Origin: Minisyncoccota bacterium
Lineage (GTDB): Bacteria; Patescibacteriota; Minisyncoccia; Phycocordibacterales; JAQTLZ01
Direction of reading: 5' to 3'
NCBI GenBank assembly: GCA_028711065.1
Contig: JAQTSY010000003.1
Span: 1,136 to 65,135 of the forward strand
Length of the DNA: 64,000 nt
Part shown: one piece after another, positions 54,809 to 61,153 of the stretch
Layout of the letters: every line of letters begins with the position of its first letter
Numbering within the stretch: the first letter of the stretch is position 1
Made by a program: the position numbers and the translations under genes
Notes under the pieces: model-generated
What the model was told of the DNA's origin: nothing
Databases searched by the model: none
What the model saw: only the letters and a program-made list of their open reading frames with translations

Positions 54809-55897
54809 ATGCCTAGTGAACAGATCTTCAAAGCTGTATATTTTCCTGACTACAAAGAAGTAAACCCCAAAGCAAAAGGTTTTATTCTTGCTTTTGGCGA
54901 AAGAAATAAAGATCTCTATAAAAATATCTCAAGTTTTGGAAGCAATGAACTGCGGGAACTTCTGGGAACAAATTCTTATCTTGAATTGGAGCAACGGGCA
55001 CAACAGGAAGGATTACCTGTGAATACATATTGTCTTTGGTATTTGCGTAAAAATCTGGAGACGGTAGATAAAAGAAGCTGGCGAAATAAAACCAAAAAAA
55101 CGTTCGTTGATTTCGAAAACAAGGTTATCAAGGGTGATTGCCTTGATGTGATGGCGGATATACCCTCAAAATCGATCGACATGGTCTTGTGCGATCTTCC
55201 TTATGGAACAACACAAAACCACTGGGATAGTGTTATCCCTCTGGATAAATTATGGGGGCATTACAATCGAATCGTGAAAGATGATGGTGTCGTCGCGCTA
55301 ACAGGACAAGGGCTTTTTACAGCAAACTTGATGTTATCGAATCCTCAATCGTTCAAGTATAAAATAACCTGGGTAAAGTCAAAACCGACTAATTTCTTAA
55401 ACGCGAAAAAGCAACCACTCCGTAAACACGAAGACATTTGCATTTTTTATCGTGCTCAACCGAGATATACTCCGCAAATGACTTACGGAGAGCCTTATAA
55501 TAAAGGTTTCAGAAAAGATCAACTCACAGGAAGCTACGGCGATTTCAAAACTGTTGAAGTTAAAAGCAATGGTGAACGATACCCAACTGATGTCGTATAC
55601 TTCAAAACGGCAGAAAGTGAGGGCGAGGTATTCCATCCTACACAGAAACCAGTCGAGCTAGGACGCTATCTTATTCGCACTTACACAAACAAAGGAGACG
55701 TTGTTTTAGATAATACATGTGGAAGTGGAAGTTTTCTCGTATCAGCAGTTCTAGAGGGAAGAAAATTCATCGGTATCGAAAAAAATGAAGACATCTACCT
55801 CCACAGAAAAGAACAGACTGATTACATTGAAGTTTGCAAAAAGAGAATTAGACAAGCTCAAATGGAGTATAAAGCAAAAGCAGGTAAACTTCTTTAG
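54809..55897 (+). CDS. Type II DNA methyltransferase, beta-class amino-MTase (N6-adenine or N4-cytosine), with an about 100-aa N-terminal extension.
   Basis: Motif IV DLPYG precedes motif I VLDNTCGSGSF. Confidence 0.8.
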   Translation: MPSEQIFKAVYFPDYKEVNPKAKGFILAFGERNKDLYKNISSFGSNELRELLGTNSYLELEQRAQQEGLPVNTYCLWYLRKNLETVDKRSWRNKTKKTFVDFENKVIKGDCLDVMADIPSKSIDMVLCDLPYGTTQNHWDSVIPLDKLWGHYNRIVKDDGVVALTGQGLFTANLMLSNPQSFKYKITWVKSKPTNFLNAKKQPLRKHEDICIFYRAQPRYTPQMTYGEPYNKGFRKDQLTGSYGDFKTVEVKSNGERYPTDVVYFKTAESEGEVFHPTQKPVELGRYLIRTYTNKGDVVLDNTCGSGSFLVSAVLEGRKFIGIEKNEDIYLHRKEQTDYIEVCKKRIRQAQMEYKAKAGKLL

Positions 55898-56811
55898 ATT
55901 CCTGTGTATGGTTCTTCTTGGAGAACATTCCGCGCTTTTTCGATTTCAGCTTCAGTAACAATTCCCTTTTCTTTCAAATATTTAAGAAGGTGAAAATATT
56001 GATTTGCGTGTAAAATAGGTTTTACAATTTTTTGCAAATTTAATTCTTTTTGAACCAGAGAAAGATGTTTTTCAGAAAGAACACCGCGCCCTATTAGATC
56101 GTAAGTGATTCGTAAAGCATCAACTGCTGTCAAATTCAAATCACCGCTGTGTGTTTTGTCCTGTTCAATATCCGAAGGTTCAATGCTTAAAAGATCGTTT
56201 ATTTCATTAAATCCATTCAGATTTCGATTGTAATATTCTATTTCTTGTCCTCGATAAGTGAACCATGTTCTTCCTTGTTCAGTGAGAGAGCCTCGCGGTA
56301 AATAAACACCTTCGTGTATTACTCGTTCTTTTGATGCCCAACCGCAGATATAAAGTATCCATTTCCTTTGTCTTGTTGTACCAGGAAGATCCCTCTTGCT
56401 CGGAGTTTCCAGATGAGTCATCACATAAATATCAGCGTCCAGCCTTTCATCATACATCTGCCGGGCAAAGAAATTATGCTTTGCTTCCCTTACAATACCA
56501 TCACTGCTTTCGTATTCCTCTTTGAATGGTAAAGCCCCGCCGCGACACTTTACATCAACCTTTATCCCAGAGGGAAGTAAAATGTCATACCCGAGAGGAT
56601 GATCCTCAGGTTTGATTTCTGGCATACCCAACTTATTTCGTATAACTATCTCCGCAAGCGCGCCAAACCCCTGCTCTTCTGAACTACCCCGTTCTGCACC
56701 GGTACTATTTTTATTTGCTGCTAAGTAATCGGCAGCTTTTTGTCTTAGTTGGAAACCTAACTCGTCTGCGAGTTTCAAGACTATGGGTTTGGGGTGAAAA
56801 TATTTATACAT
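55894..56811 (-). CDS. Candidate type II restriction endonuclease (PD-(D/E)XK). Convergent with the MTase, with a 4-nt overlap.
   Basis: E...GYDILLPSGIKVDVKCRG (D...DVK signature). Confidence 0.45.
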   Translation of the reverse strand: MYKYFHPKPIVLKLADELGFQLRQKAADYLAANKNSTGAERGSSEEQGFGALAEIVIRNKLGMPEIKPEDHPLGYDILLPSGIKVDVKCRGGALPFKEEYESSDGIVREAKHNFFARQMYDERLDADIYVMTHLETPSKRDLPGTTRQRKWILYICGWASKERVIHEGVYLPRGSLTEQGRTWFTYRGQEIEYYNRNLNGFNEINDLLSIEPSDIEQDKTHSGDLNLTAVDALRITYDLIGRGVLSEKHLSLVQKELNLQKIVKPILHANQYFHLLKYLKEKGIVTEAEIEKARNVLQEEPYTGI

Positions 56812-56905
56812 AACGGAAAATATGTACTCAAAGCATAGCTCAAATCAACACTATTCACAATAATGCGAAAAAACTAAACTCTTGAGATTCTTTTTACAAA
56901 AAATA

Positions 56906-58210
56906 TTAATGCACCAAACCTAAATAAGGAATGTCGATGTGTTTTCTATCCGTCTCACCCCAGAAAAGGGTGAGGCGGCGCGCGGGCTTACTAGCCCGCG
57001 CGCCTTGATGCTGATTTTCATTCATTGCTCGCGCGGAGGAGCCGAGGTAGACGGTGTGTTTGCCAAACTTGTGGTTGAGGTTGTCGATTGCTTGAAAAAT
57101 TTTTACCGAGGCTTCGATGCCAGCACTCTTGCCGAAAAGGTCGAGGGTGGCGGCCTGCGGGTCGATGAGAGAAAAAAGGGTGATGCCGGAGGCCCGGTAG
57201 CGCTCGCGGGGATTAAACACTTGGTCGAAATACTGGCCGACAGCGTCGATGATTTCAAGTGGCGAGGAGGTGGCGAGCGGGAGCTTCAACTCGAGGCCAG
57301 CGTAGCGGAAGTCGTGAGTTTTGAGGAAGAAGGAGATTTGGCGCGCCGCCACGGAGTGGCGGCGCGCCTTGATACACGCATTCTCGATATTTTTAGAAAG
57401 CTGGGAGAAAACAAAACTTTTGTCCGACGTCGCTGGCGTAAACGTCCTCGACCTTATAATCGAGCCGATTTCGTCGACAGGCGTCGTCACGAGCTTCTTC
57501 ACATACTCGCCGTGAAGCTCGTACCAAATCTCTTTGTAGGGTTTCGAAATGCGGTAGCGCTCCAGCCACTCCAAGGGCTTGCGTGCAAAATCGAGCGCGC
57601 TCACAATCCCCAATTTTTGCAAATACAGCGAGGTTTGTCCGCCAATCCCCCAAATTTTCCCCACAGGCAAATCTTTCAAAAAGAGATGAATGTTTCTCGC
57701 CGGAATGACGGTAAAGCCGGCGGGCTTTTTGTGCTTGGAGCCGATTTTCGCCACTACCTTGTTGGGACCGAGCCCCACGCCAAAGGTCACCCCCAGCCTC
57801 TTTTCCAGATCATTTTTTATCATGAGGGCGATAGCATCATAGGGCATTTTGTAATGCATGCGGAGCCCCGTAATATCGGCAAAACATTCATCAATGCTGT
57901 ATTCCTCCACATCCGGCGTATATTCCCGCACAATGTTGTACATCCTGCGGGCAAAGATAGAATAGCTTTCATAGTCGGATGGCAAGATGATTGCCTCCGG
58001 ACAGACTTTCTTTATCTCCTGTATGGTCATGCCCCGCGTCACCCCGCGAGCTTTGGCTTCATAGCTAAGCGAGGCGGCAATATTGCGCTCGCCACCGGTA
58101 ATGACGGGCTTGCCACGGAGCTTGTAGTTGAGCATCTGCTCGACAGAAGCGAAAAAAGCATCACCATCGAAGTGGACGATCGCACGAGGGAACGAGCGGA
58201 GGGAGAGCAT
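56906..58210 (-). CDS. dinB: Y-family DNA polymerase (DinB/UmuC-like). GC-rich.
   Basis: IVHFDGDAFFASVEQ N-terminal motif; 434 aa. Confidence 0.8.
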   Translation of the reverse strand: MLSLRSFPRAIVHFDGDAFFASVEQMLNYKLRGKPVITGGERNIAASLSYEAKARGVTRGMTIQEIKKVCPEAIILPSDYESYSIFARRMYNIVREYTPDVEEYSIDECFADITGLRMHYKMPYDAIALMIKNDLEKRLGVTFGVGLGPNKVVAKIGSKHKKPAGFTVIPARNIHLFLKDLPVGKIWGIGGQTSLYLQKLGIVSALDFARKPLEWLERYRISKPYKEIWYELHGEYVKKLVTTPVDEIGSIIRSRTFTPATSDKSFVFSQLSKNIENACIKARRHSVAARQISFFLKTHDFRYAGLELKLPLATSSPLEIIDAVGQYFDQVFNPRERYRASGITLFSLIDPQAATLDLFGKSAGIEASVKIFQAIDNLNHKFGKHTVYLGSSARAMNENQHQGARASKPARRLTLFWGETDRKHIDIPYLGLVH

Positions 58211-58290
58211 GATAGATATTTATAAGGTTGACAACTGCGAACAATTTGCTAGTATAAGGGTACAAATGGCCTTCGGGCTCGGTCTACCGC

Positions 58291-58325
58291 AAGGTAGATC
58301 AGAAAATGCAAAACCGCGATTAAAG
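58291..58325 (-). terminator. Hairpin aaaaccgcgattaaagg-a-aacctttaatcgcggtttt overlapping the stop codon of the pemK-like gene.
   Basis: 17-bp stem plus T-tract on the minus strand. Confidence 0.6.
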
Positions 58326-58715
58326 GAAACCTTTAATCGCGGTTTTGATTTCTGTAAATGATTTATCGTCTGCTACACCAAGCTTGTCTATAAAACGCTT
58401 CGTATCGATGAGGCGGACTTGGGAAATAATCGCCATGCGCATAGTTTCATCACCGACAGAACACGGCACATAATACTTATTATTCTTTTTGATTTTGGTC
58501 GTAAGCGGGACAACCAACACGACAAATTTGTTGAATTTCTTCAGTATCAAAACCGGGCGGCGAAATTCTTCGCCCTTGCCATCTTGTTCAAATCCAATGT
58601 TCACCCCAAGTGCCGCCCACCAGACCTCCTTTTCACGAAAAAAGATCGAGTCAATGTCCTCTCGTTCATTTAACACTTCTTTCTTCTTATGCCACTTGCC
58701 GTACTCTTTTTTCAT
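58320..58715 (-). CDS. PemK/MazF-family endoribonuclease toxin-like protein. No adjacent antitoxin gene.
   Basis: KEVWWAALGVNIGFEQDGKGEEFRRPVLILKKFNKFVVLVVPLTT aligns with Kid/PemK (GEIWLVSLDPTAGHEQQGTRPVLIV...VVVPVTS), and the C-terminal Q.R.ID.KR also aligns. Confidence 0.6.
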   Translation of the reverse strand: MKKEYGKWHKKKEVLNEREDIDSIFFREKEVWWAALGVNIGFEQDGKGEEFRRPVLILKKFNKFVVLVVPLTTKIKKNNKYYVPCSVGDETMRMAIISQVRLIDTKRFIDKLGVADDKSFTEIKTAIKGFL

Positions 58716-58740
58716 ATAGTTATTTAATAAATAGTAATTT

Positions 58741-59310
58741 TTACTTTTTATACTTACGGAAGGTAGAGACGACAACTCCGAGGATCTGTCCTTCCCGCGG
58801 ATAAATCGGAGCGTATTTCTCATTCGCCGCTTCGAGGTAGAATTTGCCGGCCTTTTTGCGCAGGTATTTTATGGTGTAGCCGTCTTCGGTCAGGGCCACG
58901 ACAATATCGCCCGGCTTGTAGTCGGATGTTTTTTCGAGGATGACCATGTCGCCCGGCTGGAGCCCCGCGTCAATCATCGAATCACCTTCCACTTGGAGGA
59001 GAAAGCTGGCGTCCTTGTCGCGGATGAGATATTCGCCCACGGTGATGGTGTCGGCGAGCTCGTCCTCAGCAGGAGAAGCAAAGCCGGCGCGCACGTGACC
59101 CAAGAGCCGGAGCTCGTGGAGCTTGCCGGTGGGGACGAGCTTGCCGAGACTGTCCTTCTCAACACTTCCCTCTTTGACGAGTGCTTGGATAACATAAAAG
59201 GCGGAACTGCGTGAGCGGAATTTGAAAAGCGCCATGACCTCGGTGATGGTCGGCATGCGTTTATGGTCGCGATAGAATTTAAAAACTTTTTTGGAGTAGC
59301 TTTTCCTCAT
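58741..59310 (-). CDS. lexA: LexA-type repressor (HTH plus S24 peptidase).
   Basis: C-terminal GDSMIDAGL...Lys dyad, N-terminal winged HTH. The start was chosen at MRKSYSKK, which has a GGAGGG Shine-Dalgarno sequence. Confidence 0.8.
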   Translation of the reverse strand: MRKSYSKKVFKFYRDHKRMPTITEVMALFKFRSRSSAFYVIQALVKEGSVEKDSLGKLVPTGKLHELRLLGHVRAGFASPAEDELADTITVGEYLIRDKDASFLLQVEGDSMIDAGLQPGDMVILEKTSDYKPGDIVVALTEDGYTIKYLRKKAGKFYLEAANEKYAPIYPREGQILGVVVSTFRKYKK

Positions 59311-59321
59311 CCCTCCATTAT

Positions 59322-59339
59322 ATCGAACATTTGTTCGAT
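59322..59339. promoter_or_regulatory. LexA box of the Gram-positive/Cheo type: ATCGAACATTTGTTCGAT (GAAC-N4-GTTC). A perfect palindrome about 12 nt upstream of the lexA Shine-Dalgarno sequence.
   Basis: Palindrome seen in the sequence; matches the CGAACRNRYGTTCG consensus. Confidence 0.6.
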
Positions 59340-59365
59340 AGCAAGGATTTGAGGGGAAAAGTCTT

Positions 59366-59794
59366 TTATGCGTTGCGTTTGAGACTTCGCAAAAAGTAGA
59401 CAGCGACAATGATAGCCGCAACAATGAGGGTGATGTGAAATCCGATATCGATCTTGATGAGGCCGGAGAGATTCATGCCGTTGACGCGATGAAGATTGTC
59501 ATGCGGCCACCAGTTCATGAGAAGCCATGCGATGGAGATGTAGGTTGCAAGGGTAAAGTTTTTCGCTTCAGGCATTACATTTTTTACCGACTTGTAGCCG
59601 AAAATTAAGAACGAGACACCAAGACCAAAAGCGATATCTTCCACAATTGCGATGACAATAAAAAATGGCAGCTGGAAGCTTGTCGGCACAGGTGCTCCCA
59701 TCATGTCCGGCCAGATGACTCGAGTAAGGAGAAACGTAGCGATAGCACACACTAGCGTGACGATAACAACTTTTGTTTTTGTTTTCATATCCAA
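59366..59794 (-). CDS. Hypothetical membrane protein with four transmembrane segments.
   Basis: ORF with hydrophobic segments. A GC-rich hairpin gcggcgcggccc-aga-gggccgcgccgc lies in its upstream region. Confidence 0.45.
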   Translation of the reverse strand: MDMKTKTKVVIVTLVCAIATFLLTRVIWPDMMGAPVPTSFQLPFFIVIAIVEDIAFGLGVSFLIFGYKSVKNVMPEAKNFTLATYISIAWLLMNWWPHDNLHRVNGMNLSGLIKIDIGFHITLIVAAIIVAVYFLRSLKRNA

Positions 59795-59914
59795 ATATTC
59801 TACCTTTTTCTAGCTACGTTGACTAGAAAGCGGCGCGGCCCAGAGGGCCGCGCCGCATTTAGGTGATATACTACAAGGGAACCTGTCTCTTTTTTTATTC
59901 ATCTTAAAAAATAT

Positions 59915-60307
59915 ATGAAAAAACTTATCATCGTCGTTGTGATCGGCGTCATCGCCTGTGGCGCATATTATTTTGTTTCTAAACGTAATACTGCCTACTC
60001 TCCCAGCCCAACTCCTACCCCAGAAGCGATAAACCCTGCGCCATCTTCAGGCACAGCAAACATAGACATTCAAAATTCCGCTTTTAGCCCAATGACTATC
60101 ACCGTCAAAGCCGGAACAAAAGTCGTCTGGACGAACAAAGATAGCATCACCCACACAGTCACATCCGACGCGGGTGCACCTCAATACTTCACCTCACGCT
60201 TCCCTGCCGGCGGAACATTCGGCGCGATTTTGACTGCACCAGGCACTTACCACTATCACTGCGACGTGCACCCTGAAATTACAGGCACCGTCATAGTAAC
60301 ACAATAA
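59915..60307 (+). CDS. Cupredoxin (plastocyanin/azurin-like blue copper protein), membrane-anchored.
   Basis: YHYHCDVHPEITGTVIV copper-ligand pattern (His...Cys-x2-His-x4-Met) plus an upstream His. Confidence 0.75.
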   Translation: MKKLIIVVVIGVIACGAYYFVSKRNTAYSPSPTPTPEAINPAPSSGTANIDIQNSAFSPMTITVKAGTKVVWTNKDSITHTVTSDAGAPQYFTSRFPAGGTFGAILTAPGTYHYHCDVHPEITGTVIVTQ

Positions 60308-60431
60308 AAACGCCTCCTAGTGGCAAAGACAGTCCTTTGCTAGGGGCAAAATTGACAAAGTTTGGGAAAAGGCACAGTATTGAAACAGATTCGGCTTAAG
60401 AAACCCTTTTTGAGAAGAAAGAGAGGCACGC

Positions 60432-60659
60432 GTGTCGAAATTTCGCCTAAAGAGAAGTATGAAAGGACAATTCGGAGGGTATGGTTGTCTGATACCCCTG
60501 CTGCCTTTCACGATGGCCATGGTTTTTATCCTACCAGTAATCGGTAGGATGCTACACAGACAAGAGATTAGTACTGGGGGCTGGCTTTCGCTTGCGATTG
60601 GGGCCATAATGCTGGGCCTCAGCGTCTGGACCTTTCTCACAACCCCTCAACGCTTTTAA
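60432..60659 (+). CDS. Small two-transmembrane membrane protein (75 aa) with its own downstream terminator (caaaacgg...ctcgtttttt).
   Basis: ORF plus a terminator at about 60695-60725. Confidence 0.3.
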   Translation: MSKFRLKRSMKGQFGGYGCLIPLLPFTMAMVFILPVIGRMLHRQEISTGGWLSLAIGAIMLGLSVWTFLTTPQRF

Positions 60660-60718
60660 AGCCGAACAGGCTTCCAACGAGACTTGCCGACAAAACGGTA
60701 AAGCCTCGTTTTTTATTC

Positions 60719-61153
60719 CTACATATTTTTTGGCTGGAGCATGCTGACACGGTTGCCTTCGCTGTCCTCGAAAGAGATCCAGAGACCAACGCCGGGGATA
60801 TCTTGGGGTTCCATTGTCTGCTTGCCAGAGCCATCCATCGCTCCCAAAATTTTTCCGCCTCCTTTCTCGACTTCCTTCATGGAAGCGTGAATGTCTTTGA
60901 CTGCGATCACAACTGACGGAGCATGAGATTTGGGGCTATCACTTTTTTTGTAAAAGCCCCCGTTAATGGTGCCGGGCGTTTTCACCATTCCTTTGTCATC
61001 CGTCTCTGCCGTTTGTGCTACGACATAATTTCCCATCTCCGCTCCCATCTGTTGCATTTTCCAATTGAAAACAGTTTCATAAAACTTCTTCATCCTCTCG
61101 CGGTCGTTATAGCCCATTTCGAAATGCACTACGGGATTCATTTTGTTTTTCAT
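60719..61153 (-). CDS. VOC / glyoxalase-bleomycin resistance-dioxygenase superfamily protein.
   Basis: MNPVVHFEM start motif and a beta-alpha-beta-beta-beta pattern. Confidence 0.65.
   Translation of the reverse strand: MKNKMNPVVHFEMGYNDRERMKKFYETVFNWKMQQMGAEMGNYVVAQTAETDDKGMVKTPGTINGGFYKKSDSPKSHAPSVVIAVKDIHASMKEVEKGGGKILGAMDGSGKQTMEPQDIPGVGLWISFEDSEGNRVSMLQPKNM

Follow-up and report, generated by a model that had tools for sequence, protein, structure and literature searches.

A MazF-family toxin gene and a convergent structured RNA inserted into a Patescibacteria lexA-dinB operon as a likely toxin-antitoxin-like module

We analyzed a 64,000-nt stretch of contig JAQTSY010000003.1 from the Minisyncoccota bacterium assembly GCA_028711065.1, hereafter the window, in which lexA, a gene for an endoribonuclease toxin of the MazF/PemK fold and dinB follow one another on the minus strand; all coordinates are window positions. 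An earlier reading of the same DNA (the original prediction) had named these three genes and taken them for a single acquired cassette in which a solo mRNA interferase is governed by LexA. The gene identities were upheld by domain matches, by alignment with E. coli LexA and by fold matches to MazF only. lexA (59310-58741) encodes a self-cleaving repressor of 189 aa with a winged helix-turn-helix (wHTH) and an S24 domain. Its product matched Peptidase_S24 (E = 1.1e-25), scored just below the cutoff of TIGR00498 lexA (105 bits, cutoff 111) and aligned with E. coli LexA end to end; the VRAG cleavage site, the serine (GDSM), the lysine (IKYLRK) and the wHTH region all fall within the alignment. 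The 837 LexA homologues were for the most part from Patescibacteria, and the LexA of the window is an ordinary orthologue in this group, 65-90% identical to its relatives and carrying no added domain. The toxin gene (58715-58320, 131 aa) is co-oriented with lexA and separated from its stop codon by 25 bp that contain no terminator. dinB (58210-56906) encodes a 434-aa Y-family polymerase of the dinB type with IMS, IMS_C and IMS_HHH domains.

The toxin is a MazF by profile and by predicted structure. PF02452 was its sole Pfam match (E = 4.7e-14), and a profile search of the PDB reached MazF/EndoA at 2e-07, finding the MazF proteins of B. subtilis, B. anthracis and S. aureus. The AlphaFold2 model had a predicted local distance difference test (pLDDT) score of 82.5; its top 50 Foldseek matches in the PDB were all MazF, and it superposed on MazF-mt1 and on S. 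aureus, B. subtilis and E. coli MazF with a template modeling (TM) score of ~0.7. R53 and T72, invariant in 29 homologues, align with the RPV and ITAQ motifs of B. subtilis and B. anthracis MazF and are the equivalents of the Arg/Thr pair that, from the MazF literature, we take to be catalytic. Both the fold and the catalytic residues assumed by the original prediction are present. The subfamily also has features that canonical MazFs do not have, a basic N-terminal helix (K3, W8, K12) and an invariant NxGFEQDG loop, and its alignment contains 22 invariant columns, with many homologues 75-85% identical.

The toxin family is large and its genomic settings are diverse. We retrieved 311 word-indexed homologues and 233 clusters at 50% identity (E <= 1e-30), and relatives occurred in at least 562 species-representative genomes, overwhelmingly of Patescibacteria. 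Most loci held one copy, the upstream neighbor was divergent in half of the inspected contexts, and the neighborhoods consisted of unrelated housekeeping genes that differed even among proteins 80-85% identical. Six-frame translation of 58100-58900 gave no open reading frame (ORF) resembling MazE or PemI on either strand, and no flanking ORF was conserved across 85-87 toxin loci when flanking ORFs were clustered and small same-strand neighbors listed, as expected from the earlier claim that no PemI/MazE antitoxin gene is present. A protein antitoxin was ruled out as a general feature of the family; a Phd-like neighbor (L007; L numbers denote individual loci) and an XRE-like neighbor (L050) were isolated cases. 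The PADLOC defense models gave no match to the locus.

Abutting the 3' end of the toxin gene and convergent with it lies a predicted small RNA (sRNA), a candidate antitoxin of ~90 nt (58261-58352, plus strand) that scored 107 bits with the covariance model described below. It starts at 58261 with a 5' tail (UACAAAUGG), which is followed by hairpin P1 with a UUCG loop (58268-58271/58276-58279), hairpin P2 with a GCAA loop (58281-58288/58293-58300) and an A-rich linker leading to P3 (58309-58347). P3 is a bidirectional intrinsic terminator with an 18-bp stem, T-runs on both strands and an inverted repeat that is 100% complementary; it holds the toxin stop codon (58320-58322), and the last part of the toxin ORF contains its 3' arm and U-run. 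The predicted sRNA promoter (58228-58255, plus strand) consists of TTGACA, a 16-nt spacer and (TGC)TAGTAT, ends 5 nt before the start of the sRNA model and scores 10/12, with a TG extension. No tandem or direct repeat family was found in 58180-58780, and the sRNA is single-copy.

This layout is common to the homologous loci, which share the order TTGAC(A/T)-16/17-TAnnnT, 5 nt, a (U)AYAAAYGG tail, P1, a P2 of variable sequence, an A-rich linker and P3. The position and sequence of the sRNA promoter were kept across 80 loci, and it scored at least 10/12 in 56% of loci compared to 0.6% of shuffles; the promoters of the toxins themselves were weak, barely above background. The 3' end of the sRNA model overlapped the toxin ORF by a median of 33 nt.

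The RNA gene was supported by DNA conservation and by covariation. In BLASTN comparisons, conservation extended ~60 nt past the toxin stop codon and included a block of 23-25 nt that was 100% identical even beside toxins only ~50% identical in protein. A covariance model built from 11 seeds detected the sRNA opposite the 3' end of the toxin gene, in convergent orientation, at 74 of the 85 loci; inspection by eye raised this count to ~83 of 85. Among the 45 top hits, 95.6% of cells were paired and compensatory changes were seen in 23 of 25 pairs, counts that lean somewhat to the model given the hand-annotated seed and covariance-model realignment; all 13 modeled pairs of P3 covaried. The covariation score was 0.623, compared to 0.197 for shuffles (0 of 500 reached 0.623) and at most 0.125 for slid partners, and both the slid-partner control and single-sequence folding agreed with the model nevertheless. 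RNAalifold run on a plain MAFFT alignment recovered the terminator alone. Folded singly, the window sRNA adopted the modeled structure with a minimum free energy of -45.2 kcal/mol (z = -9.95), compared to -39.3 kcal/mol for its complement. The strand was further indicated by G-U pairs, frequent on the sRNA strand, which would be A-C mismatches on the toxin strand. Loops were of recognizable classes, P1 having a UNCG loop in 59 of 73 copies and P2 a GNRA loop in 44 of 73.

We found no match to Rfam 15 over the sRNA tail, P1 or P2 (cmscan of 56000-61000, E <= 1); the sole overlapping match was a weak miRNA precursor model on the palindromic terminator (58308-58348; 24.2 bits against a gathering threshold of 68, E = 0.26). 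We also rejected a peptide encoded by the sRNA, since only 52 of 82 copies have AUG in the tail, the others reading ACG, and since the frame is shifted by indels in P2.

The association with the toxin held when approached from the RNA side. A reciprocal search of metagenome contigs with an sRNA 21-mer only gave 17 loci, each of which the covariance model confirmed; in 12 of them (including L108) a convergent gene encodes the whole toxin or most of it, one had an N-terminally truncated toxin (L112), two were at contig edges and three retained only a toxin remnant. Four viral-contig matches to an sRNA 18-mer were due to chance, being unconfirmed by the covariance model and without a toxin. In L112 (2443-2811), located beside uvrB, the toxin lacks N-terminal residues 1-48 and the sRNA is intact. 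In L114 (3528-3615), of which L102 and L107 are copies of the same sequence, a 24-aa toxin remnant accompanies an orphan sRNA beside a tRNA gene, with its promoter intact and its terminator replaced by a new one. Such decayed copies, in which the nuclease is lost and the RNA kept, are the pattern expected of a toxin and its antidote. Tandem paralogous toxins in L041 and L046 each had their own sRNA copy. We are highly confident that the predicted sRNA gene exists and is linked to the toxin, and comparison of loci indicates that this pairing is near-obligate and supports the anatomy, strand, promoter and covariation given above. The toxin had been described as solo, a view at odds with the convergent sRNA gene found directly at its 3' end, both in the window and at ~83 of 85 homologous loci.

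Several side observations concern the reach of the family. No phage match was obtained, and the sole plasmid homologue, 39% identical, is on Nitratiruptor plasmids, which led us to reject phage or plasmid carriage. That homologue (L100; plasmid NZ_AP023062.1 of Nitratiruptor sp. YY08-14, a cultured epsilonproteobacterium, locus 1432-2092) has a similarly convergent layout, in which a TGTATAAT box and a UAUAAAU tail are accompanied by two hairpins next to the stop codon; covariance model R1 gives the element no score. A 62-aa ORF resembling ribbon-helix-helix (RHH) proteins lies downstream, and the locus may be an evolutionary intermediate or an experimentally tractable system. The toxin-sRNA module also occurs in assemblies labeled as lying outside the candidate phyla radiation (CPR), namely Trueperaceae (L047, chromosome OY759346.1), Chitinophagaceae (L042), Chloroflexota (L036) and Bacteroidia (L063), and these include one complete chromosome of 4.48 Mb. 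This suggests horizontal spread, though labels of metagenome-assembled genomes (MAGs) may be unreliable. In a subclade that includes Yanofskybacteria-labeled MAGs (L023, L037, L046, L053, L066, L073, L081), a conserved hairpin and CTGGTAAttttTACCAGacTTTGTTTTAATA stand just before the ATG, ~30 nt upstream of the toxin start, and the sRNA has a different 3' end with no terminator inside the ORF. The hairpin and motif may act in 5' regulation or represent an upstream terminator that these loci have in common.

Comparison with relatives indicated that the toxin and sRNA entered a pre-existing operon. In all relatives inspected (L091, L092/L093, L094-L096 and L097), whose LexA is 90% (L091 and L097), 79% (L092 and L093) or 69% (L094-L096) identical to that of the window, lexA and dinB are separated by a gap of 1-5 bp with no toxin. 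Alignment of the junction, which reads TAA-(1-5 bp)-ATG in relatives, placed the extra DNA of the window exactly between the lexA stop codon and the polymerase; this segment (58211-58740, ~530 bp, GC 40.4%) is absent from the lexA-dinB junction of relatives, and the first three codons of dinB were replaced at the insertion junction (MKEQ to M). The order lexA-toxin-dinB was found only in L098 and L099, contigs 100% identical in DNA to the window and thus from the same organism. We conclude with high confidence that a toxin-sRNA module was inserted in this strain into lexA-dinB, an ancestral, native Patescibacteria operon autoregulated by LexA. Neither terminal repeats nor a target-site duplication was detected around the ~530-bp insert. 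Visual comparison suggested only a weak, AT-rich likeness between TTATTAAATAACTATATG, which precedes the toxin, and TTATAAATATCTATCATG, which precedes dinB.

The base composition that had suggested a composite module was confirmed, with a GC content of 53.3% in lexA, 52.9% in dinB and 41.7% in the toxin gene (window 44.5%); at third codon positions, GC was 66-67% in lexA and dinB, 49% in the toxin and 31% in a neighboring 305-aa ORF. The locus is therefore composite as proposed, but it is not one acquired cassette, since lexA-dinB is ancestral and only the ~530-bp toxin-sRNA piece is inserted. As a side observation, the lexA-dinB operon sits in a different neighborhood in each relative, and may itself be compositionally atypical or mobile there.

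The operon is headed by a predicted LexA-controlled promoter. The lexA promoter (59317-59344, minus strand) has a -35 TTGCTA (59344-59339), a 16-nt spacer and a -10 TATAAT (59322-59317), followed by a GGAGGG ribosome-binding site. It scores 10/12, and it and the sRNA promoter are the two best promoter-like sites in 58100-59900. A Cheo-type LexA operator (59322-59339; ATCGAACATTTGTTCGAT, ATCGAAC-ATTT-GTTCGAT) occupies the entire spacer. The original prediction had called this operator a perfect palindrome; its 7+7 arms (ATCGAAC/GTTCGAT) are indeed perfect, but the 4-nt center is not palindromic, so that the site falls short of a fully perfect 18-mer. The core GAAC-N4-GTTC is by itself not rare, with two matches in the window against 1.1 expected. 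The second match in the window is inside an ORF; the longer TCGAAC-N4-GTTCGA at zero mismatch has the lexA operator as its single site in the window. It is the position in the promoter and the conservation of the operator and promoter layout (TTGCTATCGAACAAnTGTTCGA-TATAAT) in 4 of 4 orthologous lexA promoters, and not the rarity of the motif, that make the predicted operator convincing, and on these grounds we regard the site at 59322-59339 as real.

The insertion appears to have changed the wiring of the operon in two ways. Upstream of the toxin, 25 bp were kept before the ATG, with a promoter score of 6/12, and the best promoter-like site on the minus strand upstream of the toxin is the lexA promoter. 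Because the 25-bp gap is free of terminators and there is no recognizable promoter of its own, the toxin is most plausibly transcribed from the lexA promoter. Most plausibly, then, the toxin is SOS-inducible here as a lineage-specific accident; LexA boxes were absent upstream of the toxin homologues in the first seven loci. The role given to LexA as upstream regulator survives to this extent, though not as the sole partner, since the sRNA gene adjoins. Downstream, dinB now sits behind the bidirectional terminator with its 18-bp stem, whereas in relatives it adjoins lexA, and we propose that the terminator in the insert uncouples dinB from the lexA promoter. The scan of 58100-59900 gave no recognizable promoter for dinB itself, nor was there a full LexA site for dinB at up to two mismatches, only a CGAAC half-site in the spacer of the sRNA promoter. 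That half-site (58240-58248, CGAACAATT) equals the left half and center of the LexA operator of L091 (CGAACAATTGTTCG); lacking the right half, it could be chance or a remnant, and it is not usable as an operator as it stands.

Taken as a whole, the locus is best explained as a mobile, toxin-antitoxin-like MazF-sRNA module inserted in lexA-dinB, in which an RNA antitoxin likely binds the nuclease directly and the toxin is on a LexA-repressed promoter; we give this reading a probability of roughly 0.55. From sequence we infer four things: a transcribed sRNA, a toxic protein, neutralization of that protein by the RNA in the proposed mode, and induction of the toxin in the SOS response. The module would comprise the MazF-family endoribonuclease and a constitutively, strongly transcribed structured RNA of ~90 nt, convergent genes with a common bidirectional terminator. 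That the sRNA is the antitoxin of the toxin is probable; that it acts by binding the protein, in a mode resembling type III systems, is probable too, with lower confidence. The RNA would likely make contact through its conserved 5' tail and P1, and the protein through its basic N-terminal helix and GFEQDG loop. In the window strain the insertion would have cost the toxin its own, generally weak, promoter and led to co-transcription with lexA from the LexA-repressed promoter, such that DNA damage would produce more toxin against a constant level of sRNA and shift the toxin-to-RNA ratio. The same insertion would have put a strong terminator before dinB, making its expression dependent on read-through. 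A transcript reading through from lexA to dinB would run antisense to the whole sRNA and collide with the sRNA promoter, a possible route by which SOS induction could also lower the antidote. In its most specific form, the proposal is of a new toxin-antitoxin class in which a canonical MazF is neutralized by a single-copy, convergent, three-hairpin sRNA that binds the nuclease directly, possibly as a pseudo-substrate via its UACAAA-like 5' tail, and which is widespread in Patescibacteria and captured here by an SOS promoter; we hold this version only tentatively, at somewhat less than even odds.

The main rival is an antisense mechanism like that of the type I loci txpA/RatA and bsrG/SR4 of B. 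subtilis, in which the convergent transcripts would pair via their overlapping 3' ends in the common terminator and the toxin mRNA would be degraded or blocked with no contact to the protein. The essentially universal convergent 3' overlap (median 33 nt), a bidirectional terminator that makes the ends perfectly complementary by construction, and the combination of a strong sRNA promoter with a weak toxin promoter are all compatible with such a mechanism. Direct binding is nevertheless favored because sequence conservation in the RNA peaks in the 5' tail and P1, beyond the stretch that is complementary to the toxin mRNA, because the toxin subfamily has invariant features of its own in the N-terminal helix and NxGFEQDG loop, and because the orphan sRNA of L114 survived with an entirely different terminator sequence. 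The non-overlapping part of the sRNA, moreover, showed no cognate-specific pairing with the translation-initiation region of the toxin (cognate vs. non-cognate, p = 0.40). Both 3' ends are also locked in the 18-bp hairpin, and the toxin, at 131 aa, is a soluble nuclease rather than a small peptide of the membrane. We therefore consider the antisense mechanism unlikely, if the strongest of the alternatives. A weaker rival is that the RNA is no antitoxin, the MazF-like protein being a conserved, non-selfish RNase of CPR bacteria and the RNA its substrate, cofactor or guide in a ribonucleoprotein, or an independent sRNA or terminator that travels along. Such a role would fit the very high protein conservation, the single copy and housekeeping neighborhoods at most loci, and the lack of a PADLOC match. 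It is harder to reconcile with an insertion polymorphism at the lexA-dinB junction between relatives 90% identical, with contexts that differ even among 80-85% identical proteins, with tandem paralogous modules and with decayed copies that drop the nuclease and keep the RNA; the catalytic MazF residues are kept, and the promoter asymmetry is typical of toxin-antitoxin modules. This combination makes a role outside toxin-antitoxin biology improbable.

The original prediction, in which LexA is the sole regulator or the antitoxin of an SOS-controlled solo mRNA interferase within an acquired lexA-toxin-dinB cassette, has in its favor the co-oriented toxin start 25 bp after lexA with no terminator between, the missing toxin promoter and the failure to find a protein antitoxin ORF. 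It is contradicted by comparative data: neither lexA nor a dinB-like Y-family polymerase gene was found within 4-5 kb on each side of the toxin in any of 87 homologous loci, lexA-dinB is a conserved pair that relatives have without the toxin, which is a strain-specific insert, a conserved partner RNA gene stands at the toxin 3' end, and LexA has no extra domain. We consider this model very improbable, and with it the idea of LexA as antitoxin.

Some observations weigh against the reading that we prefer, of an RNA antitoxin that binds MazF directly. The sRNA 5' tail is variable, with ACAAAUGG alternating with AUAAACGG, and conservation of the P1 sequence could be due simply to a C(UUCG)G hairpin being stable and not to contact with the protein. 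The universal 3' overlap is also predicted by an antisense mechanism of the type I kind. Many homologues are 75-85% identical, more than is usual for a selfish toxin, and this would suit a housekeeping role as well. The RHH-like ORF of L100 means that some toxin relatives may use protein antitoxins. Finally, the SOS link was seen in one organism only and may be a neutral accident.

The locus shares elements with several known systems. As in type II MazEF/PemIK (Kis-Kid) modules, the toxin has the MazF fold, a PF02452 match and the Arg/Thr catalytic pair; in contrast to them, there is no MazE/PemI gene at the window locus and none conserved in 85 loci, the partner being a convergent sRNA, and the toxin has the extra basic N-terminal helix and a longer invariant GFEQDG loop. 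Type III toxins have a fold related to Kid/MazF, and the type III systems ToxIN, CptIN and TenpIN likewise pair an endoribonuclease with a noncoding RNA, place a terminator between the two genes and offer a plausible analogy for direct inhibition of a protein by RNA. The window toxin, however, is a bona fide PF02452 MazF and not ToxN/AbiQ, CptN or TenpN, and its RNA is a single three-hairpin unit with its own promoter, downstream and convergent, whereas type III RNAs are tandem repeat arrays located upstream and co-directional. With the B. subtilis type I loci txpA/RatA and bsrG/SR4 (reviewed in PMC6562991) it has in common convergent genes, a 3' transcript overlap (predicted here from the genes alone) and a strong RNA promoter opposed to a weak toxin promoter. 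Type I toxins of the txpA/bsrG kind are hydrophobic peptides of <60 aa, unlike the soluble 131-aa RNase of the window; the overlap here is confined to the common terminator, and a conserved RNA domain lies outside it. Toxins linked to the SOS response and operons of lexA with a polymerase are known from E. coli dinB-yafNOP, symE/symR and tisB/istR and from Geobacter lexA-dinB. The window locus resembles these in the LexA-repressed promoter upstream of the toxin and in the linkage of a Y-family polymerase to lexA, but it differs in the unrelated toxin family with an RNA partner and in that its SOS link is a lineage-specific insertion, not a conserved regulon member. Overall, the locus resembles type III systems in its likely logic and the B. 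subtilis type I loci in gene geometry.

In our full-text literature search, no MazF toxin was described as having a convergent sRNA dedicated to it. The sole MazF-associated antisense RNA found was aMEF of E. coli, which, as outlined in its report, fine-tunes a classical type II mazEF operon that encodes MazE and stimulates its expression (PMC8749433). Both cases, as far as aMEF is described there, involve antisense RNA at a MazF locus; at the window locus there is no MazE, and a conserved gene for a structured RNA has a promoter of its own. The MazF-sRNA module thus appears to be undescribed and widespread, caught here as a fresh insertion.

If the favored reading is true, a large subfamily of MazF, the textbook type II toxin, is under the control of a dedicated structured RNA, which would blur the boundaries between types I, II and III. 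It would also account for an entire class of PemK/MazF genes annotated as "orphan" in CPR genomes and would add a new, well-supported RNA family in organisms whose regulatory RNAs are almost unknown. The module is ~560 bp long with strong predicted promoters, making it directly testable in E. coli. The window would further represent a natural experiment in which one insertion places a toxin under LexA and cuts the translesion polymerase off, suggesting that selfish modules can rewire a minimal SOS regulon.

Other features near the operon were of minor interest. A membrane ORF of 142 aa (59794-59366), not discussed in the original prediction, is unrelated to lexA, the toxin or dinB. Between it and a divergent cupredoxin gene (59915-60307) lies a hairpin terminator with a 12-bp all-GC stem (59830-59856); this hairpin produced Rfam matches to RT-9 and AaHKsRNA41 (E 0.3-0.8), which are not real family members. 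Directly 3' of dinB, a low-GC (~39%) gene pair (54809-56811) looks like a separate acquired island. Its first gene, on the plus strand, encodes an N6/N4 DNA methyltransferase (PF01555), and the second is the convergent 305-aa ORF, which has no Pfam or PADLOC match and probably encodes the cognate restriction enzyme; L098 carries both genes as well.

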